Below are positions 20,162 through 38,036 of a DNA stretch of 64,000 nt, piece by piece (positions within the stretch are counted from its first letter, which is position 1; every line of letters begins with the position of its first letter). Position numbers and translations under genes: made by a program. The notes beneath the pieces were generated by a model. It was given only the letters and a program-made list of their open reading frames with translations, made no database searches and had not been told where the DNA came from. Origin of the DNA: Parcubacteria group bacterium Gr01-1014_8. GTDB lineage: Bacteria > Patescibacteriota > Minisyncoccia > Phycocordibacterales > UBA2100. The stretch is taken from contig VMGC01000004.1 of NCBI GenBank assembly GCA_007376385.1, positions 32,001-96,000 of the forward strand, written 5' to 3'.

Positions 20162-23100
20162 CTATCGCACGGGGGAGGATCGCTGCACAACAGTGCTGTC
20201 TTGCCGCGCGATTTTCCACGAACCCGGCCATCGGTAGGTCAAAATCGGTATCATCACTAAGGTCAATATCATAGAGAATGCAAGCCCGAACATGATAGCG
20301 AACGCCAGCGGTCCCCATAGCGCTGAAGCGCCAGCAAGCGGCGCCATGCCGATAACGGTTGTCAGCGTCGTAAGGAATATCGGACGAAGGCGTGAGACGG
20401 CGGCCTCGACGATGATATCTCTATGGCTAAGGTCGTGCCGCGTCTGCAAAAGCCGATGTATTGAGTCAGTAAGAATAATTGCGTGATTAATGATAACCCC
20501 GGCGAGCGCAATGATGCCGATGACGGACGAGAACGACAGCGTTTGCGCCGTTAAGAACAATCCTCCGAAGACGCCGATCAAGGATAGGATGACCATCAAG
20601 ATGAGGTAGAGTGCGTGGCGCAGAGAATTGAATTGAAGGACCATGATGGCTATCATCAAAAGGAGGCCCGCAATGAACGCGATACCCATTTCCGCGAATG
20701 ACTTATTTACATCTTCAGTCTCACCGCCCGCTTTCCACGTGACGCCCTCTGGCAATTCGAGTTCATCTATACGCGCTTCGAATTCGTTTGTAACTTCAAC
20801 TGCTGTTTTACCGCCAGAAACCTGGCTAGAGACAGTCTCAATGCGCTTGCGATCGTCATGGCTGATGGAAGATTTTCCGCGATGAATTGATGTATCGAGA
20901 ACTGAACCGAGGAGTACCGGTCCACGGGGCGTTGGAATAGATATCGCGCGCAAAGCGTCTGGGCTAATGATAGTCGTTTCAGATGGGTCATCATAGAGGG
21001 GATTGAGGTCGAGTTTAACAACGACGTCTATATCGTCTTTAGCATTTCGTATCGTCGTAGCCGTTTGACCTTGTACAGCCGTGCGCAGTGTTTGCGCTAT
21101 CATCACCGGCGATAATCCTAAGGAAGCTGCTTTTGCCCTGTCGATAGAAAGTGAGAATTCGAGCCCGTTATCTTTCACGCTCGACTGAATGTCTGAGACT
21201 CCTTCAATGGAGGAAAGAATGTTTTCTGCCTTTAACGCGGCACTTTCCAGTTGGTCGAGGTCATCGCCGGAAAATGTGATGAGTACCGGCGAGCCCGACG
21301 GCGGGCCGTTATTCGGCTCCTGTATGCGAACATCCGTTCCCGGGATCGTGCCAACGCTTTTCCGAATATCCTCAACTACCTCGGACGAGGTCTTAGTCCT
21401 GTTTTTTTTGAGAAGTATAGTGATGTTCGCAAGATGGCCACCAGACGTTGGAGCGTCTCCAGTAAGAGCGCTCGAACCTCCCGTTGTCGTGGTGAATGCT
21501 TCAATATCAGGATTTCCATACAGCGATTCCTCAACGATGCGTACCGCAAGGTCGGTCTCTTCGAGAGCAGTGCCGCGCGGTTTCTCGATCTCAGCAAAAA
21601 TAAAATCTATGTCTTCCTGCGGGAAGAACGTTGTCCTCAAGAGGCCTGTAATAGGTAAGAGCATGGAGAGGATGAATGCGCCTGCTATTGACCACAGGAA
21701 AATATTCTGCGCCCGTCTGCTATCTAAGAGCCCGGATAGCTTCATCCGGTACCACTCTTGGAATCGATGCGTATACTCCTCTTGTTTTTGTTCGAGCCTG
21801 TTAGACTCTTTTGTCGTTAAAGCGATAGCTATGAGAGGAACAATGCCGAGAGCAACAAAAATTGACGCTACAAGAACGAAGATAAGCGTGAAAGGAATCG
21901 ATGCTATGAATTCGCCGACAATGCCGGATATGAAAAAAAGTGGAGCAAATACGGCGACGCTCGCCATCGTGCCGCTCATAAGCGGCCACGCATATTCCCG
22001 AAGCGACACGGCAGCTGCTTCATCCTTCGTAGGATAGCGGCGCATGCGGGTATGTATGGCCTCGGTGACAACGATGCCGGAATCAACCAGGATACCAATT
22101 GCAAGAATGAGCGCAAAAAGCGATACGAAGTTTATCGTATTGCCGGACGCTTGCAGGCCTATGAATGCTATAAGGAACGAAAGCGGAATAGAAGCTGCTG
22201 CAACGAGCGATTCACGCCAACCTATCGTTATAAAGAGAGTAAGCATCACCAATATCATGGTCTCGAATCCGACGCTGGTGAGCTCCGTTAAGTCTTTATT
22301 GACCTCTTCCCCTAAGTCGAGCGCAACGACAACCGTACTCCCCGCAAGCATGCCCGACTGCAATTCATCAAGCCGTTCTTTTATAGCGTCGGCAGTCGCG
22401 ACGATATTGCCGCCGGAACTTTTGAAGACGGAGAGCGTAAGGGAAGATTGCGACGGCTCACCCGCCTTCGACGCTCGGGAGATGCTCGTCGGTTTTTGTA
22501 ATCCATCCACAATGTCTGCGATATCGCGGATGTACACGATCGAGCCGCTTTGAGTCAATATCGCAACATCACGCACTTGGTCCGCTTTTGTAAGGTCTCC
22601 CTCAAAGTTCAGCGCGTATTCGACAGAATTGACGGTTATTGAACCTACCGGCAGCGAAGCATTTGATGCTTGTATGGCTCCCGTTACATCTCCTAGTCGG
22701 AGTCCATACTGCTCGAGTTTGTCTTTTTGAACTATGACGTGTATCTGGCGTTTCCGCACGCCTGACACTTCTACTCGGGAAACACCGTCCACATTTTGAA
22801 GCTCTTCTTTTATATCGTCGCCTAGTTTTGTGAGGATAGAAGGCGGATATTCACCGGTCACGGAAATAATAAGTACTGGTTGTTCGGAGAAATTTATCTC
22901 GCTCACGACCGGGTCATTTGCTTCTTCCGGCAGATTTGGTTTTACCTGGTCTATCGCGTCCTTCAAGTCCTGGATAGATTTGTCGAGGTCGGCACTCGCG
23001 TCGAATTGCACAGTAACGATCGAAATGCTCTCGCGAGAACTCGACGTGAGTGTGTCCAGGTTTTCAAGATTCGCGACAGCTGTTTCTATCTCATTCGTTA

Positions 23101-23290
23101 TGAGCTGCTCCACATCTTCAGCTGAACCGCCCGGCAGAACGACCGAGACGATGCCGACTGGGATACGAACCTCGGGCGCTGATTCCTTGGGGATCGAGAG
23201 AAGCGCGTAAGTACCAGCAGCAATGAGAGACACTACGAGAAGAACCGTGAATTGGCGCTTTTTAAGAAAAAATGTCCAGAGCGGTAACAT
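20162..23290 (-). CDS. RND efflux transporter, AcrB/HAE1-like inner-membrane permease
   Basis: 1042 aa with 12-TM topology, two large periplasmic loops and family-wide conserved segments. Confidence 0.9.
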   Translation of the reverse strand: MLPLWTFFLKKRQFTVLLVVSLIAAGTYALLSIPKESAPEVRIPVGIVSVVLPGGSAEDVEQLITNEIETAVANLENLDTLTSSSRESISIVTVQFDASADLDKSIQDLKDAIDQVKPNLPEEANDPVVSEINFSEQPVLIISVTGEYPPSILTKLGDDIKEELQNVDGVSRVEVSGVRKRQIHVIVQKDKLEQYGLRLGDVTGAIQASNASLPVGSITVNSVEYALNFEGDLTKADQVRDVAILTQSGSIVYIRDIADIVDGLQKPTSISRASKAGEPSQSSLTLSVFKSSGGNIVATADAIKERLDELQSGMLAGSTVVVALDLGEEVNKDLTELTSVGFETMILVMLTLFITIGWRESLVAAASIPLSFLIAFIGLQASGNTINFVSLFALILAIGILVDSGIVVTEAIHTRMRRYPTKDEAAAVSLREYAWPLMSGTMASVAVFAPLFFISGIVGEFIASIPFTLIFVLVASIFVALGIVPLIAIALTTKESNRLEQKQEEYTHRFQEWYRMKLSGLLDSRRAQNIFLWSIAGAFILSMLLPITGLLRTTFFPQEDIDFIFAEIEKPRGTALEETDLAVRIVEESLYGNPDIEAFTTTTGGSSALTGDAPTSGGHLANITILLKKNRTKTSSEVVEDIRKSVGTIPGTDVRIQEPNNGPPSGSPVLITFSGDDLDQLESAALKAENILSSIEGVSDIQSSVKDNGLEFSLSIDRAKAASLGLSPVMIAQTLRTAVQGQTATTIRNAKDDIDVVVKLDLNPLYDDPSETTIISPDALRAISIPTPRGPVLLGSVLDTSIHRGKSSISHDDRKRIETVSSQVSGGKTAVEVTNEFEARIDELELPEGVTWKAGGETEDVNKSFAEMGIAFIAGLLLMIAIMVLQFNSLRHALYLILMVILSLIGVFGGLFLTAQTLSFSSVIGIIALAGVIINHAIILTDSIHRLLQTRHDLSHRDIIVEAAVSRLRPIFLTTLTTVIGMAPLAGASALWGPLAFAIMFGLAFSMILTLVMIPILTYRWPGSWKIARQDSTVVQRSSPVR

Positions 23291-23310
23291 ACGCTACGTC
23301 GAGTTCAAAT

Positions 23311-24921
23311 TTACTGCGCGATTTCCACCTCTTGCCCTTCCTTTAAGCCGCGAACATCCACAACGATCTTAGTATCTGCATCGAGCCCGGAAGTTACTTG
23401 CACGTACTCGCCGGACAATTTGCCGATCGTAATTTCATGCGATACTGATTTATTTTCAACAACGGAAAAAATAATGGTACGACTAGCCTCGATCTTGAGG
23501 GCAGTTATAGGAATCGAAAGAGGGCCTTTTACTTCGGGTTTTGGTTTCTCGCCATTCGCGGTAAATTCTACTCTCAGCGATTGACCGTTCGTCAGCGTGT
23601 TTATCGCAGTTACAGGAAGCCCAATACGTACCTCTATCTTACGGGTCACAGGGTCAAGCGCAGGCGCTATTTTGGTAACGACGCCGGTGATGCCTCCCTC
23701 CAGCGCTACCTTCTGCCCGACTGATACGCGAGATTTATCCTCTTCTGTAAGAAATGCGATCGCTTCAAGTGCATTGTTGTTTGAAACAATAGCTATCTCT
23801 TGGGAAGGCGCAACCGTGTCGCCGAGCTTGATGGTGAAGTTATTCAACGTTCCTGAAATAGGGGAACGAATGATGGTTTTTTCAAGGTTTGCAAGTGCGG
23901 CGTTGTATGCTCCTTCGGCCTGCTTTACTACCGCTGCTGCAGCCGCGACGTCTTCCGACTGTGCGCCTGTCTCGCCTTGTTCGAGATTCTTTTCTGTAGT
24001 TTCAATTCCGCTTTTTGCTGAAGTGATCGCGGAAAGGGCGGTAGTGAGAGCAGTTCGAGAAGCAGTTGCATCGGAGCGGAATGCGGCAATGTCCGCCGAA
24101 TCAACGCCCGGTGAGTCGATGGCATCTGAGAGAGCGGCGAGAATGGTGTCGATAAATGTGCGTATATCACGCACCTCTGCTTCAGTAACTTGCAATTCGG
24201 TCTTCAGGTCGGAAGATGTAGAAATTGCATGGGATGCTGATTCTTGTCTTTTTAGAACAATAGCGAGTTCGCCACGTGTATATTCGAGAGCCACCTCTCG
24301 CTGCTGATTTGACGTTACCGGGGTGAATTGTATCTGGCCTATCTCAACGCCAGTGAACATTTGGTCCGCTGTATCGTTTACAGCGCTGTCCACTGTCCCG
24401 TATGCCGTAAGAAGTGAATTTACGGCAGTACCCTTCGCGGATGCGAGGACCGACTGGAGTATGGACAATTGTTCAGCCCGTGTACCGCCCTGGATCTTGT
24501 GGAGCGACGCTTTGGCGGCATCATATGCACCCTCAACTTGTAAGACTGTCGCGCGCTGCGAGCTATTCTCCAGTTCGGCAAGGACCTGGCCAGCCCCGAC
24601 GTGGTCTCCAAGAGATGCCTTTACGCGAACAACTCTGCCCCCGTTTTCGGGTGATATCTTCGCCTCGTTCACCGATTGGACTTCAGCGATAACTGAAAGG
24701 GTAGTACCCCCGTTCATGAGGTCGGCAACCCGTTTTACCACAACTGTTCGTATTTGTTTCTCTGCGAGCTCTGTTGAGCCGCCAGAGAGCGATATATAAG
24801 CAACAACAGCTATGAGGGCAATGACGAGCAGGAGAATGATGGATAGAGTTCTTCGAGAACGCCAGCTCACTCCGCGAAGAAGTCTTAGGAAAGGCACATT
24901 CTGAATGTTGAATGATGGCAT
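23311..24921 (-). CDS. RND efflux periplasmic adaptor (membrane fusion protein, HlyD-like)
   Basis: N-terminal TM anchor, long coiled-coil hairpin, and lipoyl/beta-barrel-like flanks. Immediately upstream of the RND permease. Confidence 0.85.
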   Translation of the reverse strand: MPSFNIQNVPFLRLLRGVSWRSRRTLSIILLLVIALIAVVAYISLSGGSTELAEKQIRTVVVKRVADLMNGGTTLSVIAEVQSVNEAKISPENGGRVVRVKASLGDHVGAGQVLAELENSSQRATVLQVEGAYDAAKASLHKIQGGTRAEQLSILQSVLASAKGTAVNSLLTAYGTVDSAVNDTADQMFTGVEIGQIQFTPVTSNQQREVALEYTRGELAIVLKRQESASHAISTSSDLKTELQVTEAEVRDIRTFIDTILAALSDAIDSPGVDSADIAAFRSDATASRTALTTALSAITSAKSGIETTEKNLEQGETGAQSEDVAAAAAVVKQAEGAYNAALANLEKTIIRSPISGTLNNFTIKLGDTVAPSQEIAIVSNNNALEAIAFLTEEDKSRVSVGQKVALEGGITGVVTKIAPALDPVTRKIEVRIGLPVTAINTLTNGQSLRVEFTANGEKPKPEVKGPLSIPITALKIEASRTIIFSVVENKSVSHEITIGKLSGEYVQVTSGLDADTKIVVDVRGLKEGQEVEIAQ

Positions 24922-25070: not shown

Positions 25071-25661
25071 ATGACTAAAAAAATATTTCTCCTCCTCGGT
25101 CATCCGGACAAGATGGGATTATGCGGCGAACTTGCCGACGCATATGAGAAGGCGGCGCGAGATGCGGGACACACCATAGAGCGCATGAATTTAGGGGAAA
25201 TTAAATTTGACCCTATTCTTCACAAAGGATATCGCGAGAAACAAGAATTGGAGCCAGACCTGGTGCGCTTTCAGCAGCTCGTAACCGCGTCAGATCACTT
25301 TGTCGTTCTATACCCGGTCTGGTGGGTGGGCATGCCGGCGCTTCTCAAAGGTCTTTTTGATCGTGCGTGGCTTCCCGGTTCTGCGTTTCGCTATATAAAG
25401 ACAAAGGGCGGGCAGCGCACGGTGTTTTGGCACCGGCTATTTCGAGGGAAAACTGCCCGGATAATAATGACCAGCGGTACGGCGCCGTGGATTGTCCGCT
25501 TTTTGCCTGGCAACGTTAATGCGCAGTTGCGATGGGGAATCTTGTGGTTTGCAGGTTTCTCTGTCTGCACAACGTGGTTCGGTCCCGCAGAAAACCCGGA
25601 GCCCGCGACAAAGAAGCATTGGCTTGCGAAGATCAGCGCTTTAGGTAGAGGGGCGAGGTGA
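25071..25661 (+). CDS. Flavodoxin-like fold NAD(P)H-dependent oxidoreductase
   Basis: KIFLLLGHPD... N-terminal flavodoxin-like motif, typical of the NAD(P)H dehydrogenase (quinone)/KefF-like family. Confidence 0.7.
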   Translation: MTKKIFLLLGHPDKMGLCGELADAYEKAARDAGHTIERMNLGEIKFDPILHKGYREKQELEPDLVRFQQLVTASDHFVVLYPVWWVGMPALLKGLFDRAWLPGSAFRYIKTKGGQRTVFWHRLFRGKTARIIMTSGTAPWIVRFLPGNVNAQLRWGILWFAGFSVCTTWFGPAENPEPATKKHWLAKISALGRGAR

Positions 25662-25664
25662 CAT

Positions 25665-25904
25665 TTATTCAGCGTCGTATAAGTCCTTTCGCCACTTTTC
25701 AACCGAACCTGGCCCGTCCTTACCCTGAGGAGTATCCGATGGCGCGGGGGCCTTTTTTTTGAGTTCTTCATCAATAATGAACGGCTTATGTCTCGCCTTC
25801 TTACTCTCTTCCTCTTGGCGGTCACTCGGAGGTCCTTTCAACATGCTGCCGATTATAGCAAATTGCATGTAAAGGGCCGAGCGCCTAGAACAGTTTACAG
25901 TCAT
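25665..25904 (-). CDS. Small hypothetical protein (79 aa)
   Basis: ORF abutting the end of the oxidoreductase gene. Charged and Pro-rich; weak evidence. Confidence 0.25.
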   Translation of the reverse strand: MTVNCSRRSALYMQFAIIGSMLKGPPSDRQEEESKKARHKPFIIDEELKKKAPAPSDTPQGKDGPGSVEKWRKDLYDAE

Positions 25905-26092: not shown

Positions 26093-26740
26093 TTGCCGGA
26101 TATGTTCAAAAATAGAAAAGAAGCGGGAAAAGAAATTGCGCAAAAACTCGCATCGTATCGAGGCATGAACGCTGTTGTTCTTGCGCTTCCGCGCGGCGGA
26201 GTTGTTGTCGGGCATGAGGTCGCAAAAGCGCTCTCGCTTCCTCTTGACATTGTTGCGGTGCGGAAAATTGGACATCCGTCATCGCCGGAATATGCAGTGT
26301 GCGCCCTCGATGAACACGGGACCCGTCTATGCAATGAAAGCGCTATTTGGGATATCGATCCAGCGTGGCTTGCTGCAGAGACAGAGCGGCAGACAATGGA
26401 GGCGTTGCGGCGGGCGCGTGTGTACCGGGGAAAACGGCTGCCGGTTGAGATAGCTGGCGCGACGGCTCTCTTGGTTGATGATGGAGCCGCGACTGGACTC
26501 ACGATGCGCGCCGCGATCGCGGCTGTTCGCGCGCGAGGAGTACAGAAAATAGTCGTTGCTGTTCCCGTCGCTTCCGTAGATGCCGTCAGAGATTTCACAA
26601 AGGAAGCGGACGAAGTGGTCATCCTCGAGCCCCCGGAGGAATTTAGGAGCGCAGTCGGAGCGCACTTTCGGCATTTCGACCAAGTCGAGGACAAGGAAGT
26701 TGTCCGTCTCCTTAAGGCATCTGTTCGGAACGCTTATTGA
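26093..26740 (+). CDS. Phosphoribosyltransferase-domain protein (type I PRTase fold)
   Basis: PRPP-binding motif LLVDDGAATGLT and overall length of about 215 aa, typical of standalone predicted PRTases. Confidence 0.75.
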   Translation: MPDMFKNRKEAGKEIAQKLASYRGMNAVVLALPRGGVVVGHEVAKALSLPLDIVAVRKIGHPSSPEYAVCALDEHGTRLCNESAIWDIDPAWLAAETERQTMEALRRARVYRGKRLPVEIAGATALLVDDGAATGLTMRAAIAAVRARGVQKIVVAVPVASVDAVRDFTKEADEVVILEPPEEFRSAVGAHFRHFDQVEDKEVVRLLKASVRNAY

Positions 26741-26832
26741 TACGAGATTTGTGCGAACCATCGCGAAAAGCGGGGTGTTGAAAGGAAGAAGAGGGGAGAA
26801 TATGCGGCTAATAAACACGGCAGAGAAATGAT

Positions 26833-27774
26833 ATGCGAGAGCAAAAATTACCAAAATATTTACAGCCGATGCTCGCGACGCTCATCGACGCGCCGTTTGA
26901 CGATGCTGAGTGGGTGTACGAAACCAAGTGGGACGGTTTTCGCATTGTTGCCGAGATAAAGCCCGGCGCGGTTACATTATATTCGCGTAACGGTCAGGTC
27001 ATGAGCGAACGATACAAGCCTGTAGCGATGGCGCTTTCAAAAATTCATCACGACGCGGTCATAGACGGCGAGCTGGTCGCGCTCGACAGGCAAGGCGTAT
27101 CGCGTTTTCAGCTGTTGCAAAATGCGTTGAAAACAAAAGTTGACCTGCACTATTGTATTTTTGACGTGATGTTCCTAGATGGTAAAGACCTTCGCGGCCT
27201 CTCTCTCGTCGAACGCAAGGAACAACTAAAAAGGATTATTCCGAATGATACGTTGTTGCGATATAGCGAACATCGTTTTGAACACGGAACAAGATACTTT
27301 AATGAGGCAAAAAAGAAAAAGGAGGAAGGCATCATGGCAAAACGGGCAGAGAGTAAGTATCTTTCTGGCAAGCGCTCAATGGCGTGGCTGAAGATCAAGA
27401 CTGGCTCGAGGCAGGAGGTCGTCATCGTCGGCTTTACTGCCCCCAAACGTTCTCGTAAATATTTCGGCTCCTTGGCGCTCGCAGTTCACGAAACCGGCCG
27501 GTCGAGCGGGAAAAAATGGCGCTATGTCGGGCATGTCGGCACAGGATTTGATGCAGCTGCCTTGAATGAGATACATGGGAAATTAGAACATTTGAGGACA
27601 CGGCATTCGCCGTTCGATACGGCGGTGAAATATGAGTCAACGACAACATGGGTGAAGCCAAAGCTTGTTGGCGAAGTGAAATTCACTGAATGGACGGACA
27701 AAGGGGAGATGCGGCATCCTGCGTTCATGGGGCTTAGAGAGGACAAGAAGCCTGAGGAAGTAGTGCGCGAATAG
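26833..27774 (+). CDS. ATP-dependent DNA ligase (LigD ligase-domain type)
   Basis: Motif I KWDGFR (adenylation lysine). Conserved ligase motifs follow (FDVMFLDG, EGIMAK, WLKIK). Confidence 0.85.
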   Translation: MREQKLPKYLQPMLATLIDAPFDDAEWVYETKWDGFRIVAEIKPGAVTLYSRNGQVMSERYKPVAMALSKIHHDAVIDGELVALDRQGVSRFQLLQNALKTKVDLHYCIFDVMFLDGKDLRGLSLVERKEQLKRIIPNDTLLRYSEHRFEHGTRYFNEAKKKKEEGIMAKRAESKYLSGKRSMAWLKIKTGSRQEVVIVGFTAPKRSRKYFGSLALAVHETGRSSGKKWRYVGHVGTGFDAAALNEIHGKLEHLRTRHSPFDTAVKYESTTTWVKPKLVGEVKFTEWTDKGEMRHPAFMGLREDKKPEEVVRE

Positions 27775-27780
27775 CATGAA

Positions 27781-28674
27781 ATGAATATGTTTGAACCGAC
27801 GCATCTGGACAAAATGTATTGGCCTGAAGCCGGATATACAAAGGGCGACATGCTCAAATATTATGAACGCATTTCCCCCTACCTATTGCCGTACCTTAAA
27901 GACAGACCAGTGGTATTGAAGCGTTTCCCCCACGGCATCTCAGGGCAGAGCTTTTTTCAGAAGAATGTCGAAGGCGATGTTCCAAAATTTGTGAAGCGCG
28001 TGACGATTCCTGCAGAAACCATCGAAAAGGATGTGCACTACATCGTCTGCAATAATGTGGAGACGCTCTCGTATCTGGCAAATTTAGGGACGATAGAGCT
28101 CCATCCATGGAATTCTCGCGTGAAAAAATTACATCACCCGGACTTCATGATATTCGATCTCGACCCAGGGGAGGGAACGACGTATAACGACGTTGTCGCT
28201 GCAGCGCTTCAGACGCGTGAATTATTGGATGAATTGGGCGTTTCGAGTTATCCCAAAACATCGGGGAAAAAAGGTATACACCTATACGTGCCGCTCGGAG
28301 CAAAATATTCGTATGACGAGGTGCGTGATTTTGCTCACCGAGTGTCGGGGACGCTCGCAACGCGTTATCCAAAGCTTCTCACGGCCAAGCGCGGTGAAGA
28401 ACACAGACACAAGAAGATATTTGTCGATTATCTGCGTAATTCTGTCGGGCAGACAGCAGTCGCTCCGTACTCCCTACGCGCATCGCCCGAGGCGACAGTC
28501 TCAACGCCGCTCAATTGGAGCGAAGTGAAAAAGGGTCTCAACCCGAAATTATTCACAATTGAGTCGGTGCTCAAGCGATTGAAGGTAAAAGGCGACTTGT
28601 GGGAGCCTGTTCTTAGCACTGGAGTCGAAATGAAAGCCGCGGCGAAGCAGCTTCGCGCATTGGCTTCAAAGTAG
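27781..28674 (+). CDS. LigD-type primase-polymerase (NHEJ polymerase domain) as a separate gene
   Basis: Conserved FDLDPGEG and KTSGKKGIHLYVPL motifs of the LigD Pol/PrimPol domain. Starts 7 nt after the ligase stop. Confidence 0.8.
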   Translation: MNMFEPTHLDKMYWPEAGYTKGDMLKYYERISPYLLPYLKDRPVVLKRFPHGISGQSFFQKNVEGDVPKFVKRVTIPAETIEKDVHYIVCNNVETLSYLANLGTIELHPWNSRVKKLHHPDFMIFDLDPGEGTTYNDVVAAALQTRELLDELGVSSYPKTSGKKGIHLYVPLGAKYSYDEVRDFAHRVSGTLATRYPKLLTAKRGEEHRHKKIFVDYLRNSVGQTAVAPYSLRASPEATVSTPLNWSEVKKGLNPKLFTIESVLKRLKVKGDLWEPVLSTGVEMKAAAKQLRALASK

Positions 28675-28687
28675 TTTTTCAGCTAGG

Positions 28688-29800
28688 ATGATTCGTGTCA
28701 TGAGCCTTTCTATTGGGATAGTAGGTTTGCCGAACGTTGGTAAATCCACGCTTTTTAACGCGCTTACGCAAAAGGGTGTCTTAATAGCCAACTATCCGTT
28801 TGCGACCATTGACCCTTCTGTCGGCGTTGTTGCCGTGCCGGACATCAGGCTTACTCGATTGAGCGAAATGTCGCATTCGGAAAAGACGGTTCCGGCGGCG
28901 GTTGAATTTGTTGATATCGCCGGGTTAGTTAAGGGGGCATCGGAGGGCGAGGGTTTAGGAAATCAATTCCTAACAAATATACGGGAAACAGATGCCATCG
29001 CAGAAGTCGTGCGCCTTTTTGATGATGAAGATATCCATCACGTTCATGGCGATGTGGACCCTCTCAGAGACATCGAGGTCATCAATTTAGAACTTGTTCT
29101 CGCTGATGAGGAGACAGCAGAGAAAAGGTTGGAGCGCGTTGAGCGAGATTCTAAAAACGGCGAGAAGGAGCTTGTACTTGAACGAGATGCTCTCCGGAAA
29201 ATAGTTTCTGTTCTAAAAAAAGGTACAGCAGCTCGTGAAGCTGAGCTTACTGATAAAGAGAGGGACGTTGTGAAAGGATTTCATCTCCTCACCATGAAGC
29301 CAATTTTGTACGTCCTGAATCGAAAGAGCGGCGCGGTCAACATGGATGCAGAGGGCGGGAACAGGTGGCGGGAATTAAAGAACTTTTTTGATACTACAAA
29401 AGCACAATACGTATTCGTAGACGCCGGAGTTGAAAACGAACTTCATGATGTGGGCGATGCAGAAAGGAATGACTTCCGCCGCGAACTCGGCGTATCAAGC
29501 GACGGAATAGATGACCTCATCAAAGGCGGATACGAACTCCTTGATTTGATCTCGTTCTTCACGACAGGACCGGATGAATCTCGTGCGTGGACAATCAAGC
29601 GCGGCTCGACTGCGCCCCATGCTGGCGCCGCCATCCACTCCGATTTCCGCGATAAATTCATCCGAACAGACGTCATCCAATGGGACAAGCTCCTGGAAGC
29701 AGGCTCTTGGAGCTTGGCACGGGACAAAGGTATACTGAGGACCGAAGGGAAAGAATATATAGTTCAAGATGGAGATGTAATGGAATTTAAACACAGTTGA
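28688..29800 (+). CDS. ychF: Ribosome-binding ATPase YchF (Obg-family)
   Basis: GIVGLPNVGKSTLFNALT G1 motif, a TGS-like C-terminus, and full-length similarity. Confidence 0.9.
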   Translation: MIRVMSLSIGIVGLPNVGKSTLFNALTQKGVLIANYPFATIDPSVGVVAVPDIRLTRLSEMSHSEKTVPAAVEFVDIAGLVKGASEGEGLGNQFLTNIRETDAIAEVVRLFDDEDIHHVHGDVDPLRDIEVINLELVLADEETAEKRLERVERDSKNGEKELVLERDALRKIVSVLKKGTAAREAELTDKERDVVKGFHLLTMKPILYVLNRKSGAVNMDAEGGNRWRELKNFFDTTKAQYVFVDAGVENELHDVGDAERNDFRRELGVSSDGIDDLIKGGYELLDLISFFTTGPDESRAWTIKRGSTAPHAGAAIHSDFRDKFIRTDVIQWDKLLEAGSWSLARDKGILRTEGKEYIVQDGDVMEFKHS

Positions 29801-30300: not shown

Positions 30301-31353
30301 TTATTCAAGAGTTTTTATTGCGTTTGATTTCGCAGCCCACATCGCGAGATCCCATAAAACTCTCATTCCAACATTTTGATTCCACTCCGAATCTTCTGAC
30401 GGGCTTACTTCGTTGACATCAAAGCCGATAATGGTCTTCCCAGATCCGGCAACGGCTCGTATTAAATACGTGGCTTCTTGGAATTGAAGACCTCCCGGAA
30501 CAGGAGTGCCTGTGTGCGGGCAAAGCGCCGGATCGAGTCCATCTATATCGAGACTGATGTACACTTTTTCGGGCAATTTGCTCGCGATGTCGCTGACGAT
30601 ATTCACCCAGGTGTCGCCGCTGAATTGACGCTCCTTTATGTCCGCGTCGAAAAAAGTCACTATTCTGCCGTTCGAATTCTTTATGATCTCATTTTCGCCG
30701 ATGGAATAATCTCGGACGCCAACCTGTACTAATTTTTTGACTTGCGGCATTTTGAGCGCATTTGTCATTATTGACGCATGAGAATACGTGAATCCTTCGT
30801 ATGAATCTCGTAGGTCGCAATGAGCATCAATTTGGAGAATGCCGAAATCTCCGTGTTTTTTTGCAAGGGCACGCATAAGACCGAGCGGCGTAGAATGGTC
30901 GCCTCCGACGAGTCCCACGAGTTTTCCCCTCGCAAGCAATTCCGATGCCGTTTTCTCGATCCGCGCCATAAACAGCTCGCACCCCTCATTTATGACCGAC
31001 ATCGTATGTCCGTCATTTTTATCGATATCATGTTCGAGGTTTTCGATATGAGCCCTGGCTTTTTCGCGCAGCAAGAGGTTTTCCTTGTACGCGTCACCCC
31101 ACTCCTCGAGAGGGAGCATCGAGATGCCAAGTTTCCACGAATCGTTTCCGTAGCTTTCGTGAAAATAATCAATCTGGGGCGAGGCTTCGTATATTGCCTT
31201 CGGTCCATTATGCGTTCCGCCGCCGTACGAGACCGTGACGCCCCATGGGGCGGGGATAAGCACTACCTGCGAGTCGTCGGGCGAGAATGGGAGACCGAAG
31301 ATGCCTAAATCTTCTCGTCCGACTCCATTTGGATCGAAGTTCTCCCGTTTCAT
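30301..31353 (-). CDS. Ureohydrolase (arginase/agmatinase family); agmatinase suggested by polyamine context
   Basis: Mn-binding motifs GGDHS, DAHCD and SLDIDGLDP. Start taken at the internal ATG (MKRENFDP). Confidence 0.8.
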   Translation of the reverse strand: MKRENFDPNGVGREDLGIFGLPFSPDDSQVVLIPAPWGVTVSYGGGTHNGPKAIYEASPQIDYFHESYGNDSWKLGISMLPLEEWGDAYKENLLLREKARAHIENLEHDIDKNDGHTMSVINEGCELFMARIEKTASELLARGKLVGLVGGDHSTPLGLMRALAKKHGDFGILQIDAHCDLRDSYEGFTYSHASIMTNALKMPQVKKLVQVGVRDYSIGENEIIKNSNGRIVTFFDADIKERQFSGDTWVNIVSDIASKLPEKVYISLDIDGLDPALCPHTGTPVPGGLQFQEATYLIRAVAGSGKTIIGFDVNEVSPSEDSEWNQNVGMRVLWDLAMWAAKSNAIKTLE

Positions 31354-31784
31354 ATTCGCAGAATTATGTGCAGTGTAGCAGAATTTATAGAAGCACACAC
31401 TAGATTGCGGCATCAAAATCAACGCTATAATGGCAATCATGGTTGAACTAGAGCCGGAGCCAAGAGACCGAAGCAGCCTTTCTTGCTGGAAGGAAGAGTG
31501 CGGATAGTACCGATGCGATTGCTGATCAAGCGAGGATGATAACTTTCTTGAAAGGCCGAGCGGAACTTGATCAGAATGTCATTAACCGCCAAAAAGATAA
31601 AATTCAGAGATTGGAAGATAAGCAAATTGACCTTGAGCTAAAAATTAGAGAACTTGAGAGAAAAAATATTGATTAAGGGGTTGTCATTCGAAAATTAGAC
31701 GAAAAATTACGCCAGCTGCAACAATTCCCCCCGACGGCAAATCCTGAGAAATCGATATAATGTGGCGCGTTGCAAAGGGAATTT

Positions 31785-33002
31785 TTACCCCATTCTCGCC
31801 CTAAAGTCTTGGTAAGAGAATTCGCGTATGGGGATCGCCTGGCCGTCTTTCCATAAAACAATACTTGGGTGCTGGACACCATTGAACATGGTGCACTGAA
31901 CGAGGTTGTATTGAATTCCGTCTTCAATGACTATTTTATCGCCTGCCTTTAGAGGTTTTTTAAAGACGTGGTTAAAGGAAAGTCTGTCGCCCGTCAAACA
32001 TGTGCCTCCGCCAAGTCGATATAGATTCTTTGTATTTTTTGGCGTCTCGCTGCGATCGATCTTCGCACCTCGTATTCGCACGTCGTAGTCCGAGCTGAGT
32101 ATGAAATCCGGTGTATGAGCCGAAAACGACATGTCGAGCACCGCGATTTTGTACGGCACATCATCTCGATAGAGGACATCTAATACCGATGCTACGAGTG
32201 TTCCCGCGTTCCAAACGATAGCCGCGCCAGGCTCTAACTGAACACGAACATCGTATTTCTTTTGGAACGTTTTGATAAGCGCAATGATTCCATTTACGTC
32301 ATATGCATCATCGGTAATTTTCTGACCGCCGCCAAAGTTGATCCATTTCATGCCGGGGAAATACGTTGCAAATTTCTCTTCCACAAGAGTTACAGCAGTT
32401 TCTAGTTCGGAGAATTCCTTTTCAAAAAAGATATGAAAATGAAGTCCGCTAATGCCTTCGAGCGCCTTAGGGTCTTTCGCGAGGGCTTCTTTGAATTCGT
32501 TGATACGGATGCCAAGCCGTGAGCCTGGTGCGCAAGGGCTCCATAATCCGCCATGCTCATCGGGCCCCAGATATTCAGGATTGATACGTAACCCGCATTG
32601 TATCTTCATTCCCGTATTTTTTTCGTGTGCCCACACGCGTTCACGAAATTGATACCACTGGCTGAATGAATTAAATACGATGGTATTGCAATATTTCAAC
32701 ACATCCGCAAATTCCTCTTCTTTGTAGGCAGGAGCATACATGTGCACTTCCGACCCGAATTCATCGAAGCCAAGTCTAGCTTCATTCAGCGAACTCACTT
32801 CAGTACCGTCTAAATATTCTTTAGTGATATGAAAGAGGGGCCAGGTTGCCCATGTCTTCAAAGCTTGCAGCATGAAGCAACCCGTCTCGTCTTTCACGTG
32901 TTTCAGTATCGAGAGATTATGTCGAAGTAATTCTTCCTCGATAACAAATGCGGCGGTCTTTATTTTTGACGGATCAAGTGTGGAAGCAGGTCTTTTTTTC
33001 AT
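31785..33002 (-). CDS. nspC: Carboxynorspermidine/carboxyspermidine decarboxylase
   Basis: Fold-type III PLP decarboxylase with NspC-like length (405 aa) and conserved regions. Lies near the CANSDH gene. Confidence 0.8.
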   Translation of the reverse strand: MKKRPASTLDPSKIKTAAFVIEEELLRHNLSILKHVKDETGCFMLQALKTWATWPLFHITKEYLDGTEVSSLNEARLGFDEFGSEVHMYAPAYKEEEFADVLKYCNTIVFNSFSQWYQFRERVWAHEKNTGMKIQCGLRINPEYLGPDEHGGLWSPCAPGSRLGIRINEFKEALAKDPKALEGISGLHFHIFFEKEFSELETAVTLVEEKFATYFPGMKWINFGGGQKITDDAYDVNGIIALIKTFQKKYDVRVQLEPGAAIVWNAGTLVASVLDVLYRDDVPYKIAVLDMSFSAHTPDFILSSDYDVRIRGAKIDRSETPKNTKNLYRLGGGTCLTGDRLSFNHVFKKPLKAGDKIVIEDGIQYNLVQCTMFNGVQHPSIVLWKDGQAIPIREFSYQDFRARMG

Positions 33003-33060
33003 ATCAGCAATGTACTACGTATTCGTGAGAATGCGAGCATTTACAGTGTAGAATTTACCC

Positions 33061-33555
33061 ATGGAAGATAAAACAATTAATGCTTTGCGCTGGATTCTAG
33101 AAATTCTACATAGGAATGAAGTTGAATATCAGATCACAGGTGGTCTTGCGGCCAAAATATACGGATCTCCTAGGCCACTTAACGATATTGATATAGACCT
33201 ATCAGGAAAGTCGTTTCCAACGATAGTGCCTGAAATCTCAGAATATATAACATTTGGTCCCGCTCGTTTTAAAGATGGTAAATGGGATATGGATATGATC
33301 TCACTGAATTATCAGGGGCAGGAGATGGATTTAAGCGGTATAGACAATGATCCTCGCATCAGCAACAAGCCGAGAACAGAGTGGATCCCGTATCTCAGTG
33401 ATATTTCTAAAAAATTGAAACTTGATCATGAGGGAATGGACGTCTGGGTTATGCATCCTCGCGCATTGGCGGCATACAAGAAAGAACTCGACGGCGACCA
33501 CCAATCGATGGACATCGCAGCGGCAGAGAAATATGCCAGCGAACATGGATCGTAG
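33061..33555 (+). CDS. Nucleotidyltransferase-fold protein (minimal NTase, ANT/Lnu-like)
   Basis: GGLAAKIYGSPRPLNDIDIDL matches the hG[GS]...DhDh Pol-beta-type NTase motif. Confidence 0.55.
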   Translation: MEDKTINALRWILEILHRNEVEYQITGGLAAKIYGSPRPLNDIDIDLSGKSFPTIVPEISEYITFGPARFKDGKWDMDMISLNYQGQEMDLSGIDNDPRISNKPRTEWIPYLSDISKKLKLDHEGMDVWVMHPRALAAYKKELDGDHQSMDIAAAEKYASEHGS

Positions 33556-33560
33556 CACCT

Positions 33561-34472
33561 CTACGCTATGAGAAAAGAGCCAATGACCACAAGCAGGATC
33601 CCGGCGCTTTTTTGAATGACGGTTTCCTTCGTGAACACTTCTTCAAGATCGACTTTGAATTTCTGCTGCGCGAACATCGTGATCATAAGCAATATCAACG
33701 GATGGATGACTTTCATCGCAGCGACCTGAGTAACTGTCGCAAGAGTAAGCGCATGCAATGTGAAAAAGATATTCCCATAATCCGCCAGCTTCGCAAGGGA
33801 CGCCCCGCGTGCGTAGGAAAGAGCTCCCTGCAACTGTATACCCTTGCCGGCCCATGCAAAATGTATAGCAAGCATTACTGCGAGAAAGGCGCACATGTAC
33901 AGCATGCCACTCACCAGGAAAGACGCAGGAGAGAGCTCATACTGCTCGTAATAGCTCTTGAAAATATACCCCTCTGAACCGATGACGATCGCATCAAAAA
34001 TCAAGACACCGAGCATCATAAGTATGTATTTGGAATTTGAGAGTCTTTTTGACAGATCCTTGCGTGCAAAGAAGATCAACCCGCCGATAACCAACACTCC
34101 GACTCCGCCTATCTGCATCAACGTAAGCGACTCTTGCCGGAAAAAGATATCTATGGGCAGGAACACAAGGGGAAGAAGCGCGAACGTTACGCTGGCTGCC
34201 GTTATTTCAATGTACTTCAATATCCACGTATAGGAGATCGCTTGTATCGCATATACGAGTCCCCACCAAATTATCGGAAGAGAGAAGATTATCTCAGGCA
34301 CTGATCGGTAGATGAGAAATGCCACAACGATCGCAACACCAAGCACGATAATGTTCCGTATCAACGCGGCAACGAACGTGTCGAGCGTGCTTGAACCAAG
34401 CATCGCCGCTTTATCGATCGTTTCCTCAAGCGTGTTACAGAATATCGCGCCGAGGCTAAAGAGTTGCCACAT
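33561..34472 (-). CDS. DMT-superfamily (EamA-like) 10-TM transporter
   Basis: About 10 hydrophobic helices in two repeats of five. Confidence 0.55.
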   Translation of the reverse strand: MWQLFSLGAIFCNTLEETIDKAAMLGSSTLDTFVAALIRNIIVLGVAIVVAFLIYRSVPEIIFSLPIIWWGLVYAIQAISYTWILKYIEITAASVTFALLPLVFLPIDIFFRQESLTLMQIGGVGVLVIGGLIFFARKDLSKRLSNSKYILMMLGVLIFDAIVIGSEGYIFKSYYEQYELSPASFLVSGMLYMCAFLAVMLAIHFAWAGKGIQLQGALSYARGASLAKLADYGNIFFTLHALTLATVTQVAAMKVIHPLILLMITMFAQQKFKVDLEEVFTKETVIQKSAGILLVVIGSFLIA

Positions 34473-34475
34473 GGG

Positions 34476-35702
34476 CTATATCTTCGCGGGAAGCGGTTTG
34501 TAGTTGATGACCTTATGTGGCAAACCATTTTTTGCAAGTGTCTTCAAGAACGGCTCCGGGTCCAATTGTTCGACGTTCCATACACCTGCCCCTGTCCAAA
34601 AACCTTTCATGACCATCATGGCTGCAATTACTGGCGGTACGCCCGCCGTATATGAGACTGCTTGAGAACCGACTTCGCGGAAGCATTTTGCGTGGTCGCA
34701 GACGTTATAAATGTATTTAGTACTTTCTTTGCCATTTTTTACGCCGGTCACGATACAACCGATGACAGCCTTGCCGCTGTACCCGGTTGCTAGCGATGCC
34801 GGGTCCGGGAGAAGTGCTTTCAAGAATTGAATTGGCACGATAGGTCTCCCTTCAAACATTACAGGGTCAATCCGACTGATGCCAATCGACTCCATGACGC
34901 GAAGATGCGTGAGGTAATTCTCGCCAAATGTCATCCAGAATCGCATTCGTTCAACAGAAGGGAAATGTTTGACAAGAGATTCCATTTCTTCGTGGTAGAG
35001 AAGATAGCTCTCCCTCTTTCCAGCAACAGGATAGTTGAAGGTGAAGTGGGTGCTTTTTGGGTCCATGATCGGGGGGCTCTTTACCCACTTTCCTTTGTTC
35101 CAATGTTTAACCTCTTGCGTAACCTCGCGAATGTTGATTTCTGGATTAAAATTCGTTGCAAATGATTTGCCGTGGCTTCCAGCATTTGCGTCGAGAATAT
35201 CAACGTACTTTATCTTGTCGAAATATTTCTTTGCGATATATGCGATGAAGGCGTTCGTAACTCCAGGGTCGAAGCCAGCGCCAAGAACCGCCATGATGCC
35301 CTTTTTCTTGTAGCGCGCCTGGTATGCCCATTGCCAGCTGTATTCAAAGTGAGCCTCATCGATAGGTTCGTAGTTCGCGGTGTCTATATAGTGGACTCCC
35401 GTTTCGAGGCATGCATCCATGATGGAAAGATCTTGGTAGGGAAGGGCGAGGTTGATGACGACCTCGGGATCTACTTTACGAATGAGCGCCGCTACATCTT
35501 TAGCTTTGTCAGCGTCTACAACATGGGTCTCAATGTCCACCCCCCAGCGTTTTTTTACATTCTTCTGGATTGCGTTCGGCTTTGCTATCGAACGGCTGGC
35601 GAGGTGTATTTTTTTGAATACGTCTTTATTTATTGCGCACTTGTGTGCGGCGACACTTCCGACCCCTCCGGCTCCAATGATGAGTACAGTTCCTTTAGCC
35701 AT
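34476..35702 (-). CDS. Carboxynorspermidine dehydrogenase / saccharopine dehydrogenase family
   Basis: N-terminal Rossmann motif LIIGAGGVGSV and full-length CANSDH-like similarity. Start taken at MAKGTVLIIGAGG. Confidence 0.85.
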   Translation of the reverse strand: MAKGTVLIIGAGGVGSVAAHKCAINKDVFKKIHLASRSIAKPNAIQKNVKKRWGVDIETHVVDADKAKDVAALIRKVDPEVVINLALPYQDLSIMDACLETGVHYIDTANYEPIDEAHFEYSWQWAYQARYKKKGIMAVLGAGFDPGVTNAFIAYIAKKYFDKIKYVDILDANAGSHGKSFATNFNPEINIREVTQEVKHWNKGKWVKSPPIMDPKSTHFTFNYPVAGKRESYLLYHEEMESLVKHFPSVERMRFWMTFGENYLTHLRVMESIGISRIDPVMFEGRPIVPIQFLKALLPDPASLATGYSGKAVIGCIVTGVKNGKESTKYIYNVCDHAKCFREVGSQAVSYTAGVPPVIAAMMVMKGFWTGAGVWNVEQLDPEPFLKTLAKNGLPHKVINYKPLPAKI

Positions 35703-35759
35703 GGTTTCAATTTTATTGTATAGCCGGATGATAGGAGCGATAGGGGACAGCGTCAAGCA

Positions 35760-37595: not shown

Positions 37596-37607
37596 GATAG
37601 AAGTCTA

Positions 37608-38036
37608 TTAGCCTTCAAAAAGTAGAATAATTCCAATAGCGGAAAACAGAAAACCAACAGCCTTCGTGATAGACAACGGCTCTTTTAGAAAAATGATTCC
37701 AACAAACGCGACTATCGCAATTGCGACCACTTCCGTCAGAATGCCAGCGACGCTCAGTTGTGCGCCACGGCTATACATAAAGAAAATAGCGAGATCTGCA
37801 ATAGCTATAGAAGCACCTGCAAATAGGGCGGCACCGATGCCATAACGAGTGTACGTTAGATGTCCGTCGTATAAACGATAGAAAAATAAAAGGCAAAGGC
37901 TTACAGCCAGCGCCGACGACGTCATAATAATCACCGCAAGGAGAGGAGAGATTTTTTCGCCGGTCAATTTAGCACCGATGGCGTATCCAGCGGTACCCAG
38001 TGTGTAGAGCACGGCGAATATTTTCCACGACTGCAT
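37608..38036 (-). CDS. Small 4-TM EamA/SMR-like transporter
   Basis: About 140-aa hydrophobic protein with four predicted helices. Start taken at the internal ATG (MQSWKIF). Confidence 0.5.
   Translation of the reverse strand: MQSWKIFAVLYTLGTAGYAIGAKLTGEKISPLLAVIIMTSSALAVSLCLLFFYRLYDGHLTYTRYGIGAALFAGASIAIADLAIFFMYSRGAQLSVAGILTEVVAIAIVAFVGIIFLKEPLSITKAVGFLFSAIGIILLFEG

Follow-up and report, generated by a model that had tools for sequence, protein, structure and literature searches.

The end-joining (NHEJ) machinery of the methanogen Methanocella paludicola consists of separate Ku, ligase (Lig), polymerase (Pol) and 3′-phosphoesterase (PE) proteins, the last three encoded in an operon, and is a documented case of a split operon (PMC4797286). 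Split systems of this kind form the "nonconventional NHEJ" class, while conventional NHEJ is defined by Lig, Pol and PE in one polypeptide and a Ku gene, usually within 10 kb of LigD (PMC7719229). The three-domain LigD proteins of M. tuberculosis and P. aeruginosa are fused with PE and accompanied by Ku. In Bacillus subtilis, LigD (YkoU) has a ligase N-terminal to a polymerase and no PE (domain order, PMC13201618); both domains belong to one polypeptide and the ku gene (YkoV) is adjacent. Finally, mycobacterial LigC and Prim-PolC, a pair acting in Ku-independent repair of short gaps, are encoded by adjacent separate genes with no linked Ku.

We analysed a stretch of 64,000 nucleotides (the window) from the metagenome-assembled genome (MAG) of Parcubacteria group bacterium Gr01-1014_8, a member of the candidate phyla radiation (CPR). 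The host is a groundwater Parcubacterium with a tiny genome. The locus is laid out as follows.

26093 to 26740, plus strand: phosphoribosyltransferase (PRTase)-domain gene, type I, of the TT1426/COG1926 kind (PF00156, 1wd5 alignment)
26741 to 26832, no strand: spacer between PRTase and ligase, 92 nt
26833 to 27774, plus strand: stand-alone LigD-type ATP-dependent DNA ligase, 313 aa (TIGR02779, PF01068 and PF04679)
27781 to 28674, plus strand: stand-alone LigD-type primase-polymerase (AEP fold, PolDom), 297 aa (PF21686, TIGR02778)
28688 to 29800, plus strand: YchF-type GTPase/ATPase gene (PF06071 and PF01926)

The initial annotation had described three co-oriented ORFs, and they were found at exactly the positions it gave. 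The PRTase-domain gene lies directly upstream in the same orientation, and the ligase and polymerase are distinct co-oriented ORFs 6 nt apart, as it had held, with the ligase stop ending at 27774 and the polymerase starting at 27781. As in Methanocella, a stand-alone ligase and a primase-polymerase stand side by side, and the catalytic and 5′-phosphate-pocket residues of the Methanocella polymerase (5dmu) are the same as in the polymerase here. Thus the separate, adjacent and co-oriented Lig and Pol genes of a Methanocella-type split AP-NHEJ system are present but its clustered PE is not: Methanocella has PE in the cluster whereas this window has none, though relatives carry PE upstream of the ligase. 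Methanocella, moreover, is a methanogen with Ku, whereas the host here is a CPR bacterium. The gene order is that of the Bacillus LigD domains, but in two genes and with no linked Ku. In comparison with the M. tuberculosis and P. aeruginosa enzymes, the ligase (1vs0) and polymerase (2iru, 2fao) are homologous and their active sites conserved, but here they are unfused, with no PE. The single Lig/Pol/PE polypeptide of conventional NHEJ is therefore absent, as is its Ku gene within 36 kb on the upstream and 47 kb on the downstream side. The layout also resembles that of LigC and Prim-PolC, in that the genes are adjacent, separate and without linked Ku; the mycobacterial pair differs in that here the ligase is LigD-type and the polymerase scores above the cut-off of the LigD-pol equivalog.

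The ligase stop codon (TAG, 27772 to 27774) is followed by 6 nt (CATGAA) and the polymerase ATG at 27781, so that the two ORFs share a reading frame and are parted by the TAG plus two codons. One altered base would be enough to join them, and in one non-CPR relative (L098) the ligase is broken into two frames, as might be expected if a fused LigD gene had been broken by sequencing or assembly error or if the genes were a decaying pseudogene pair. We consider such an artefact extremely improbable. Every close relative's ligase, solo ligases included, ends at ...EEVVRE, and the TAG falls at precisely this point. In three relatives (L002, L005 and L006) the polymerase lies in a different frame (+2, +1 and +2). 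Each ORF spans its domain model from one end to the other and retains every catalytic residue, and identical proteins occur in the NCBI, ENA and Logan assemblies, which are independent of one another. The absence of a frameshift is thus upheld by the position of the TAG at the conserved ligase C-terminus and by the other frames used in relatives. Separate adjacent Lig and Pol ORFs were found in seven related Patescibacterial loci (L002, which equals L012, L005, L006, L013, L018, L019 and L020). From the sequence comparisons, ligase and polymerase are two genuine, separately translated genes, very probably forming a split (nonconventional) version of the bacterial/archaeal end-joining kit. Given the seven related loci, the shared ...EEVVRE end and the other polymerase frames, the split is ancestral.

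Assignment of the Lig and Pol domains by HMM passed the cut-offs of TIGR02779 and TIGR02778, with no significant match to the PE model, and the E-values place the assignments far beyond chance; sequence alone also linked both proteins unambiguously to solved structures. The ligase scores 307.1 bits against TIGR02779 (NHEJ_ligase_lig, cut-off 227.75), spanning model positions 1 to 301 of 302, and comprises an adenylation domain (PF01068, E 1.7e-32) and an OB domain (PF04679, E 9e-30). It matches the M. tuberculosis LigD ligase domain (PDB 1vs0) at E 1.5e-52. Both nucleotidyltransferase hallmarks, the motif I lysine (KxDG) and an OB domain with motif VI, are present; motif I reads ETKWDGFR with the lysine at K32. 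K32-W-D-G, EGIMAKR, WLKIK and RHPAFMGLREDK align with M. tuberculosis LigD, and K32 of KWDG, EG...AKR, WxKxK and RxDK are invariant across the ligase homologues. The N-terminus MREQKLPKYLQPMLAT is kept in relatives, which favours a start at 26833 over the public call at 26869.

The polymerase covers all of PF21686 (LigD_Prim-Pol; positions 1 to 254 of 254, E 9e-99, 330.6 bits) and scores 291.5 bits against the equivalog TIGR02778 (ligD_pol, cut-off 214.7). Both FDLDPGEG and KTSGKKGIHLYVPL occur in it. Its best PDB match is the Methanocella NHEJ polymerase (5dmu, E 2.5e-61, 210.6 bits), followed by Prim-PolC (5op0) and then by the P. aeruginosa (2fao) and M. tuberculosis (2iru) domains. Residues with described catalytic or DNA-binding roles in PolDom (PMC4797286) could be traced by alignment to the M. 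tuberculosis domain: the catalytic Asp triad D126/D128 (FDLDP) and D216 (FVDYLRN), the NTP-binding S/K/H residues in KTSGKKGIH, the 5′-phosphate pocket lysine K11 (LDK), the displacement arginine R48 (KRFP) and the Phe-Phe pair F58/F59 (SFFQK).

The pair sits in an ordinary Parcubacterium chromosome. The flanks hold housekeeping genes (ATP synthase, aminoacyl-tRNA synthetases, MurG, MraY and ScpAB), with a flavodoxin-like reductase and YchF as nearest neighbours, and an Rfam scan of the window returned a single tRNA only. GC and GC3 of the ligase and polymerase genes equal the window mean, giving no compositional sign of recent horizontal transfer. The ligase is 60–69% identical, by identity clustering rather than in a rooted tree, to solo ligases on contigs with alphaproteobacterial names or context, a hint of what may have been an older cross-phylum exchange. 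The YchF gene starts 13 nt 3′ of the polymerase and is possibly co-transcribed with Lig-Pol; in none of the related loci examined was YchF found beside Lig-Pol, and it is a mere neighbour. A promoter and terminator consensus scan, which included the 26741 to 26832 spacer, gave hits at shuffle level and speaks neither for nor against an operon. A mobile element or anti-phage defence system was also considered, as a gene for a large serine recombinase, overlapping one for tRNA-Glu, lies at 1070 to 2774, far to the left in the window. However, 23 kb that include ATP synthase and further housekeeping genes separate the recombinase from the locus, the composition is native, and PADLOC-DB 2.0 gave no match at E <= 0.01 for PRTase, Lig, Pol or two neighbouring ORFs, leaving this origin with next to no probability.

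The PRTase ORF extends over 215 aa from a TTG at 26093; the public call starts at ATG 26102 (212 aa), which is the likely start. It matches PF00156 (Pribosyltran) at E 2e-17 (63.4 bits, cut-off 26.3) and Thermus thermophilus TT1426 (PDB 1wd5) at E 6e-37 over 203 of 215 residues. The PRPP loop is intact, LLVDDGAATG aligning to VLVDDGVATG of 1wd5. Its scores stay below the cut-off of every equivalog model, and the models thus assign no substrate. TT1426, an uncharacterised PRTase fold of the COG1926 kind, shares this fold and loop but is known from structural genomics only and carries no reported tie to DNA repair.

We compared the neighbourhood with that of related loci. In relatives, an island on one strand carries HSP20, YjbQ, the ribosome hibernation factor HPF, PRTase, DLH and UPRTase, then separate PE, Lig and Pol genes; some islands add RtcB, Archease and a 2H/LigT phosphoesterase. 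HPF, HSP20 and RtcB are absent from the window. PRTase orthologues (E 1e-55 to 4e-82) lie upstream of PE-Lig-Pol on the same strand in L002, L006, L018 and L020, and beside HPF in L099 and L101. PE is directly upstream of the ligase in L002, L018 and L020, and in L006 with two small intervening ORFs; L005 has Lig-Pol with neither PRTase nor PE upstream. Of the ORFs in the surrounding 12 kb or so, none but PRTase, Lig and Pol recur in the relatives' loci. The interval between PRTase and ligase in relatives is 0.7–4.6 kb of other genes including PE, as against 92 nt here, and the PRTase abuts the ligase in this genome because these intervening genes, PE included, are missing.

One might take PRTase, ligase and polymerase for a functional three-gene unit in which, for example, the PRTase supplies ribonucleotides (base + PRPP to NMP) to the ribonucleotide-preferring polymerase in a cell without de novo nucleotide synthesis. 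These are the sole genes kept between the window and its relatives despite wholly different flanks, five of six informative loci have the PRTase upstream in the same orientation (0.09–4.6 kb away), and its PRPP-binding loop is intact. Yet in L099 and L101 the orthologue directly follows HPF, with no Lig-Pol in the stretch examined. It is missing upstream of Lig-Pol in L005 and was found in no soil relative examined, most of whose contigs are short, and TT1426, the nearest structure, is uncharacterised and offers no substrate to point to. Descent from a single island explains the linkage equally well, and we regard the three-gene unit as quite unlikely. Since the orthologue adjoins HPF even in islands without Lig-Pol in the stretch examined, the PRTase does not belong to the ligase alone, and its adjacency reflects shared ancestry of the neighbourhood.

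A stress island ending in PE-Lig-Pol in the relatives suggests that Lig-Pol may serve non-growing cells in the repair of breaks and gaps. In Bacillus, LigD and Ku are tied to the spore, itself a non-growing state; the parallel between the spore and the relatives' hibernation-factor island is one of analogy. In a broader version of this idea, the PE-Lig-Pol genes of Patescibacteria of the Parcubacteria/Paceibacteria type would be the Ku-less terminal module of a co-regulated dormancy island healing RNA and DNA ends, with the PRTase feeding the polymerase. The setting would be ultra-small cells that lack de novo synthesis of nucleotides, with a polymerase that prefers ribonucleotides and with joining or gap repair independent of Ku. 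We hold this broader version to be rather unlikely.

The initial annotation had noted neither Ku nor a nuclease (PE) domain in the window, and Pfam, tblastn/phmmer and PE HMM searches agree. A Pfam scan of 46 window ORFs gave no Ku (PF02735) or LigD_N/PE (PF13298), nor did the recorded Pfam matches of other called genes between 16869 and 37774. By tblastn and phmmer, three Ku proteins (two from Agrobacterium, one from soil contig L057) found nothing in all six frames of the window, and two PE proteins no significant match. An HMM built from five PE domains reached a best E of 2.6 in the window, which is not significant. Its first-ranked segment (25626 to 25838, minus strand, overlapping a small ORF at 25665 to 25904; tblastn E 0.3–0.4) was considered as a PE relic and rejected as a chance match, given E = 2.6 and the absence of the PE catalytic His/Asp motif. 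The 92-nt spacer holds no PE remnant by tblastn or the PE HMM. No PE of Gr01-1014_8 appeared among the best 120 PE homologues, a weak observation as most of these have no source name.

Ku was likewise not found in the 10 kb beyond either end of the window, so the locus is not a canonical operon with Ku just outside it, an arrangement that would have overturned the initial annotation. In total, 84 kb of contig, reaching 36 kb upstream and 47 kb downstream of Lig-Pol, are without Ku, as are about 109 kb of related Patescibacterial loci (~10 loci; six frames, three Ku queries). Ku was seen only in L057, a soil-type relative, where it adjoins a homologous ligase. The lack of Ku holds for the contig region examined, and in this lineage Ku is not genetically linked to Lig-Pol. 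Whether it is encoded elsewhere in the genome or absent is roughly an even choice.

The proposed end-joining or gap-repair function seems reasonable from sequence. By comparison with characterised homologues, the polymerase would dock on the 5′-phosphate at a break or short gap, its Phe-Phe pair would splay the template, and the 3′ end would be extended, preferably with ribonucleotides; the ligase would adenylate on K32 and then seal the nick. No 3′-phosphoesterase is at hand here that would trim over-extended or 3′-phosphate ends, and without PE the enzyme content equals that of Bacillus LigD, though in two genes. With Ku encoded elsewhere, the pair could carry out classical Ku-dependent joining as in Methanocella; without it, the pair would be limited to nicks, short gaps and ends held by base pairing.

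We give a somewhat less than even chance to canonical Ku-dependent NHEJ, in which a Ku homodimer encoded elsewhere would recruit both enzymes to ends, as in Methanocella paludicola. None of the PolDom features that act at double-strand breaks is missing from the polymerase, its best structural relative is the Methanocella NHEJ polymerase, the ligase is LigD-type, and functional split systems have been described (PMC4797286). Within the Patescibacteria, a Saccharimonadales MAG is listed with two LigD genes and a Ku domain protein (PMC10876117 Table S5), and the soil relative L057 has Ku beside its homologous ligase. However, no Ku was found in the contig or the related Patescibacterial loci, while Ku is within 10 kb of LigD in 75% of conventional NHEJ genomes, and 10.3% of complete bacterial genomes have LigD without Ku (PMC7719229). 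That same absence of Ku from all Patescibacterial loci examined, together with the gene-level layout, would fit Ku-independent excision or gap repair, in which the pair would work like mycobacterial LigC and Prim-PolC, filling gaps of 1–3 nt (base or ribonucleotide excision) and then sealing them. In the PDB, Prim-PolC structures (5op0 and 6sa0, E about 3e-48) rank second among the matches of the polymerase. The protein families, however, differ: the ligase passes the LigD-ligase model with 307 bits but reaches only 121.7 on NF006078 (cut-off 296), which we take to be the LigC-type ligase model, and the polymerase passes ligD_pol and scores 210 bits with the NHEJ polymerase against 167.6 with Prim-PolC 5op0. 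These scores place the pair outside the LigC/Prim-PolC family and leave only a likeness in how it works, which we consider a tenable reading but a clearly less than even one.

The initial annotation had called the arrangement uncommon, which does not stand: all of the best 120 ligase homologues are ligase-only proteins, and about 100 of the best 120 polymerase and 120 of the best 120 PE homologues are stand-alone. Stand-alone polymerase homologues include some recorded under Paceibacterota, Kaiserbacteria and Yanofskybacteria, while a polymerase-ligase fusion is recorded under Buchananbacteria. In public records both genes are already named as a ligase or NHEJ ligase; the split layout is common and already annotated, and is no new system. 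A literature search on LigD or NHEJ in Patescibacteria, Parcubacteria and CPR returned incidental mentions and no dedicated study.

Large genomes and slow growth have been linked with the possession of end-joining genes (PMC7719229). The modest interest of this locus lies in its host, in that end-joining genes occur in a reduced CPR genome. Should the lineage truly lack Ku, it would provide a natural system for studying how LigD-type enzymes function without it. The repeated linkage to a hibernation-factor/RNA-repair island in relatives suggests that such reduced organisms may invest in break and gap repair for the non-growing state.

Comparison with curated family models and solved structures identified a LigD-type ligase gene (Lig) and a primase-polymerase gene (Pol) that lie next to each other, behind a phosphoribosyltransferase gene (PRTase) on the same strand:

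26093-26740, + strand: PRTase, PF00156 (E 2e-17)
26833-27774, + strand: Lig, PF01068 and PF04679, passing TIGR02779
27781-28674, + strand: Pol, PF21686 LigD_Prim-Pol (E 9e-99), passing TIGR02778

Lig scored 307 bits against TIGR02779, the curated NHEJ ligase-domain model (cut-off 228), over model positions 1-301 of 302, and its closest solved structure is the ligase domain of M. tuberculosis LigD (1vs0, E 1.5e-52). The motif I lysine is present (K32 in KWDG), and EG..AKR, WxKxK and RxDK show no variation among the homologues. The public call starts at a Met at 26869 and gives a protein of 301 aa. Because the N-terminal residues upstream of this Met are conserved, both the N-terminus MREQKLPKYLQPMLAT and the 12 residues MREQKLPKYLQP preceding the public start (26833-26869) being kept in homologues, Lig probably starts at 26833, which is the better supported of the two positions. 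Pol scored 291 bits against TIGR02778 (cut-off 215). Its top structural match is the NHEJ polymerase of Methanocella paludicola (5dmu, 2.5e-61), followed by the mycobacterial Prim-PolC (5op0/6sa0, ~3e-48), P. aeruginosa LigD-pol (2fao) and M. tuberculosis PolDom (2iru). In alignment with M. tuberculosis PolDom, Pol has matching residues for the metal-binding aspartates D126/D128 (FDLDP) and D216 (FVDYLRN), K11 of the 5'-phosphate pocket, R48 (strand displacement), F58/F59 (base stacking) and the S, K and H of KTSGKKGIH, with roles as given in PMC4797286. Since these active-site residues are aligned or conserved, both Lig and Pol look catalytically competent at the level of sequence.

The PRTase passed none of the NCBIfam equivalog models at cut-off. 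It is matched over nearly its full length by the uncharacterised Thermus protein TT1426 (PDB 1wd5, E 6e-37), with the PRPP-binding loop kept between the two, and its public gene call begins at ATG 26102. The 430-nt gap upstream of it holds a small annotated ORF of 67-79 aa (25665-25904, - strand). We considered this ORF as a relative of the LigD 3'-phosphoesterase/nuclease domain (PE, PF13298) on account of its KGP... and P.G..G.G.VE.W.K..Y patterns; with E values of 0.3 (tblastn) and 2.6 (HMM) and no catalytic motif, we attribute the likeness to chance.

Lig and Pol had been described in the initial annotation as distinct, adjacent and co-oriented ORFs separated by 6 nt, and this is what we observe: Lig ends in a TAG stop at 27772-27774 and the ATG of Pol follows 6 nt further on. 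The two are in phase (an offset of 948 nt), with TAG CAT GAA as their sole separation, so that a wrongly called stop, not a frameshift, is the artefact to consider; one substitution in the Lig stop codon would yield a Lig-Pol fusion (27772-27783). We consider a fused LigD with a miscalled stop very unlikely on several grounds. The residue ending ...EEVVRE is the C-terminus of all close ligase homologues, stand-alone soil-bacterial ligases included, and the Pol ORF is offset from Lig by +2, +1 and +2 in three related metagenome loci (L002, L005 and L006, respectively). Moreover, Lig and Pol match TIGR02779 and TIGR02778 end to end, and identical proteins are found in NCBI, ENA and Logan assemblies. 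The common C-terminus and the frames of the relatives equally bear out a junction at 27775-27780 that is free of frameshift. A broken ligase does occur elsewhere, on a non-CPR contig with PE, ligase and Pol (L098, 6296-6956), where the gene is split over two overlapping frames and the OB domain alone is called, which probably reflects gene decay or a faulty assembly.

The same annotation had considered a split LigD without a visible Ku uncommon. This view does not hold, given the homologue counts and published figures. All of the best 120 ligase homologues are ligase-only proteins of ~270-400 aa, and the best 120 PE homologues all stand alone (120/120). About 100 of the best 120 Pol homologues stand alone, with named sources in Paceibacterota, Kaiserbacteria and Yanofskybacteria, the remainder being Pol-PE or Pol-Lig fusions (one Pol-Lig fusion is named from Buchananbacteria). 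In 80 metagenome loci, ligases of a soil type (60-69% identity) are mostly solo, without an adjacent polymerase; at one such locus (L057) Ku adjoins the ligase. Split systems have been classed as nonconventional NHEJ, Ku lies within 10 kb of LigD in 75% of conventional systems, and LigD occurs without Ku in 10.3% of ~6,000 complete genomes (PMC7719229).

No Ku (PF02735) or PE gene was found in Pfam scans of 46 window ORFs and the recorded Pfam hits of the other called genes at 16869-37774, nor in any of the six frames when three Ku and two PE proteins were searched by tblastn and phmmer --max, and the best match of the PE HMM reached only E = 2.6. The reported absence of Ku and nuclease from the window is thus confirmed. 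Ku is equally missing from the 10 kb of contig past each window end, where GrpE/DnaK/DnaJ lie on one side and MraZ/Mur/PBP on the other; a canonical operon with Ku just outside is therefore not what we find, and the Ku-free contig span covers 36 kb on the upstream side and 47 kb on the downstream side of Lig-Pol. Two explanations present themselves. A Ku encoded by an unlinked gene could serve Lig and Pol, and we put the chances of this close to even: split systems with unlinked Ku are already established, and two LigD genes and Ku have been reported in one Saccharimonadales MAG (PMC10876117 Table S5). That the pair is truly Ku-independent is also about evenly balanced in our judgement, every Patescibacterial locus examined being without Ku (none in ~109 kb of related loci). 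Lig and Pol may possibly work in the manner of LigC/Prim-PolC. However, the model scores do not place them in that family: Lig scores as LigD-type and reaches 122 bits against NF006078, which we take to be the LigC-type ligase model, below its cut-off of 296, and Pol passes TIGR02778 and is closer to 5dmu than to Prim-PolC.

The pair sits in ordinary chromosome (F-type ATP synthase, several aminoacyl-tRNA synthetases, MurG, MraY, ScpA/B, ribosomal protein L9 and a polyamine cluster), its GC and GC3 equal the window mean, and PADLOC returned no matches for PRTase, Lig, Pol or two neighbouring ORFs. The sole Rfam match there is a tRNA. Other features are listed here:

1187-2740 (public call), + strand: large serine recombinase (Resolvase + Recombinase + Zn ribbon)
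30301-39599: polyamine-type cluster, including an arginase-family (agmatinase-like) enzyme, a 611-aa GNAT protein and the next three genes
31785-33002: carboxynorspermidine-decarboxylase-like gene
34476-35756: saccharopine-dehydrogenase-like gene
38184-39599: Orn/Arg decarboxylase

The recombinase 3' end overlaps tRNA-Glu(CTC) (2702-2774, - strand) by ~38 nt, and this site (1070-2774) is a possible edge of an integrated element; immediately past it come a SHOCT protein (100-810) and a DsrE-like gene. The leucyl-tRNA synthetase (41124-44081, + strand, 985 aa) carries, between catalytic core and editing domain, an unusual alpha/beta-hydrolase-like insert (residues ~245-398; PF06821 Ser_hydrolase, E 6e-8, and three further hydrolase families). 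Somewhat unexpected in a Parcubacterium are a PEP carboxylase of the PEPcase_2 family (PF14010, E 1e-128; 57025-58533, - strand), the archaeal type of this enzyme, and an RND efflux pump with periplasmic adaptor (20162-24921, - strand).

Identity clustering of the best 120 ligase homologues set ~14 proteins at 72-80% apart from a large group at 60-69%. Within the close group, the proteins with inspected contigs come from Patescibacterial MAGs or have the gene neighbourhood of those MAGs. In all seven loci inspected (L002, identical to L012, from Hainich groundwater MAG H51-bin041_1; L005; L006 (Rifle); L013 from Paceibacterota WC_15; L018; L019; L020) Lig and Pol are adjacent yet separate ORFs. 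A separate PE gene immediately precedes the ligase in L002, L018 and L020, and in L006 with two small ORFs between; neither L005 nor the window has one. PRTase orthologues (E 1e-55 to 1e-82) lie upstream on the same strand at 0.7 kb (L020), 3 kb (L002 and L006) and 4.6 kb (L018), the window distance being 92 nt, and the hibernation factor HPF (PF02482) directly precedes PRTase in L002, L006 and L020. Within ~12 kb of the pair, all-against-all comparison found only PRTase, Lig and Pol in common, the flanks being wholly different. Related Patescibacteria have a conserved gene island, all on one strand, seen in L006 and in two further loci (L099, L101):

L099, 1373-10444, same strand: island
L101, 1400-10444, same strand: island
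L006, 2496-9481, same strand: island

The fuller island of L099 and L101 holds HSP20, YjbQ, DUF7670, HPF, PRTase, DLH (dienelactone hydrolase), UPRTase, PBP, Archease, a 2H/LigT phosphoesterase, RtcB and others (the RtcB RNA ligase is called in L099 and L100). It ends in a solo PE, without Lig-Pol in the stretch examined; in some genomes Lig-Pol is added after PE. Most simply, Lig-Pol together with PE would be a variable end module of a stress/hibernation/RNA-repair island of Patescibacteria, from which the intervening genes would have been lost or relocated in the Gr01-1014_8 genome. Our literature search found no description of this island.

The solo LigD-type ligases of soil metagenomes (L021-L097, L008, L014) form a very abundant family, 60-69% identical to the Parcubacterial Lig, in which the members that carry a name or have telling neighbours are indicative of Alphaproteobacteria (one is from a Hyphomicrobiaceae MAG, and L008 has a Ros/MucR neighbourhood). 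Because identity is so high across phyla, the sequences suggest past horizontal exchange of the ligase.

By homology, Pol would bind a break or short gap by its 5'-phosphate and lengthen the 3' end, preferring ribonucleotides, and Lig would then seal the nick. As the window lacks PE, the set of activities is the same as in Bacillus LigD (ligase and polymerase, no PE), here in two genes, and ends with a 3'-phosphate or over-extended with ribonucleotides would have no trimming enzyme dedicated to them. We think it unlikely that these genes form a Ku-less DNA/RNA end-repair kit for dormancy with a functionally coupled PRTase. The genes are already known, under the public names 'DNA ligase (ATP)' or 'non-homologous end-joining DNA ligase', and we found no study of LigD-type repair in the CPR lineage in the literature searched. 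What is mildly unexpected is the reduced-genome CPR host and the recurring linkage to the hibernation/RNA-repair island; the neighbourhood of the relatives (HPF, HSP20, RtcB) suggests that Lig-Pol may be used in non-growing cells.
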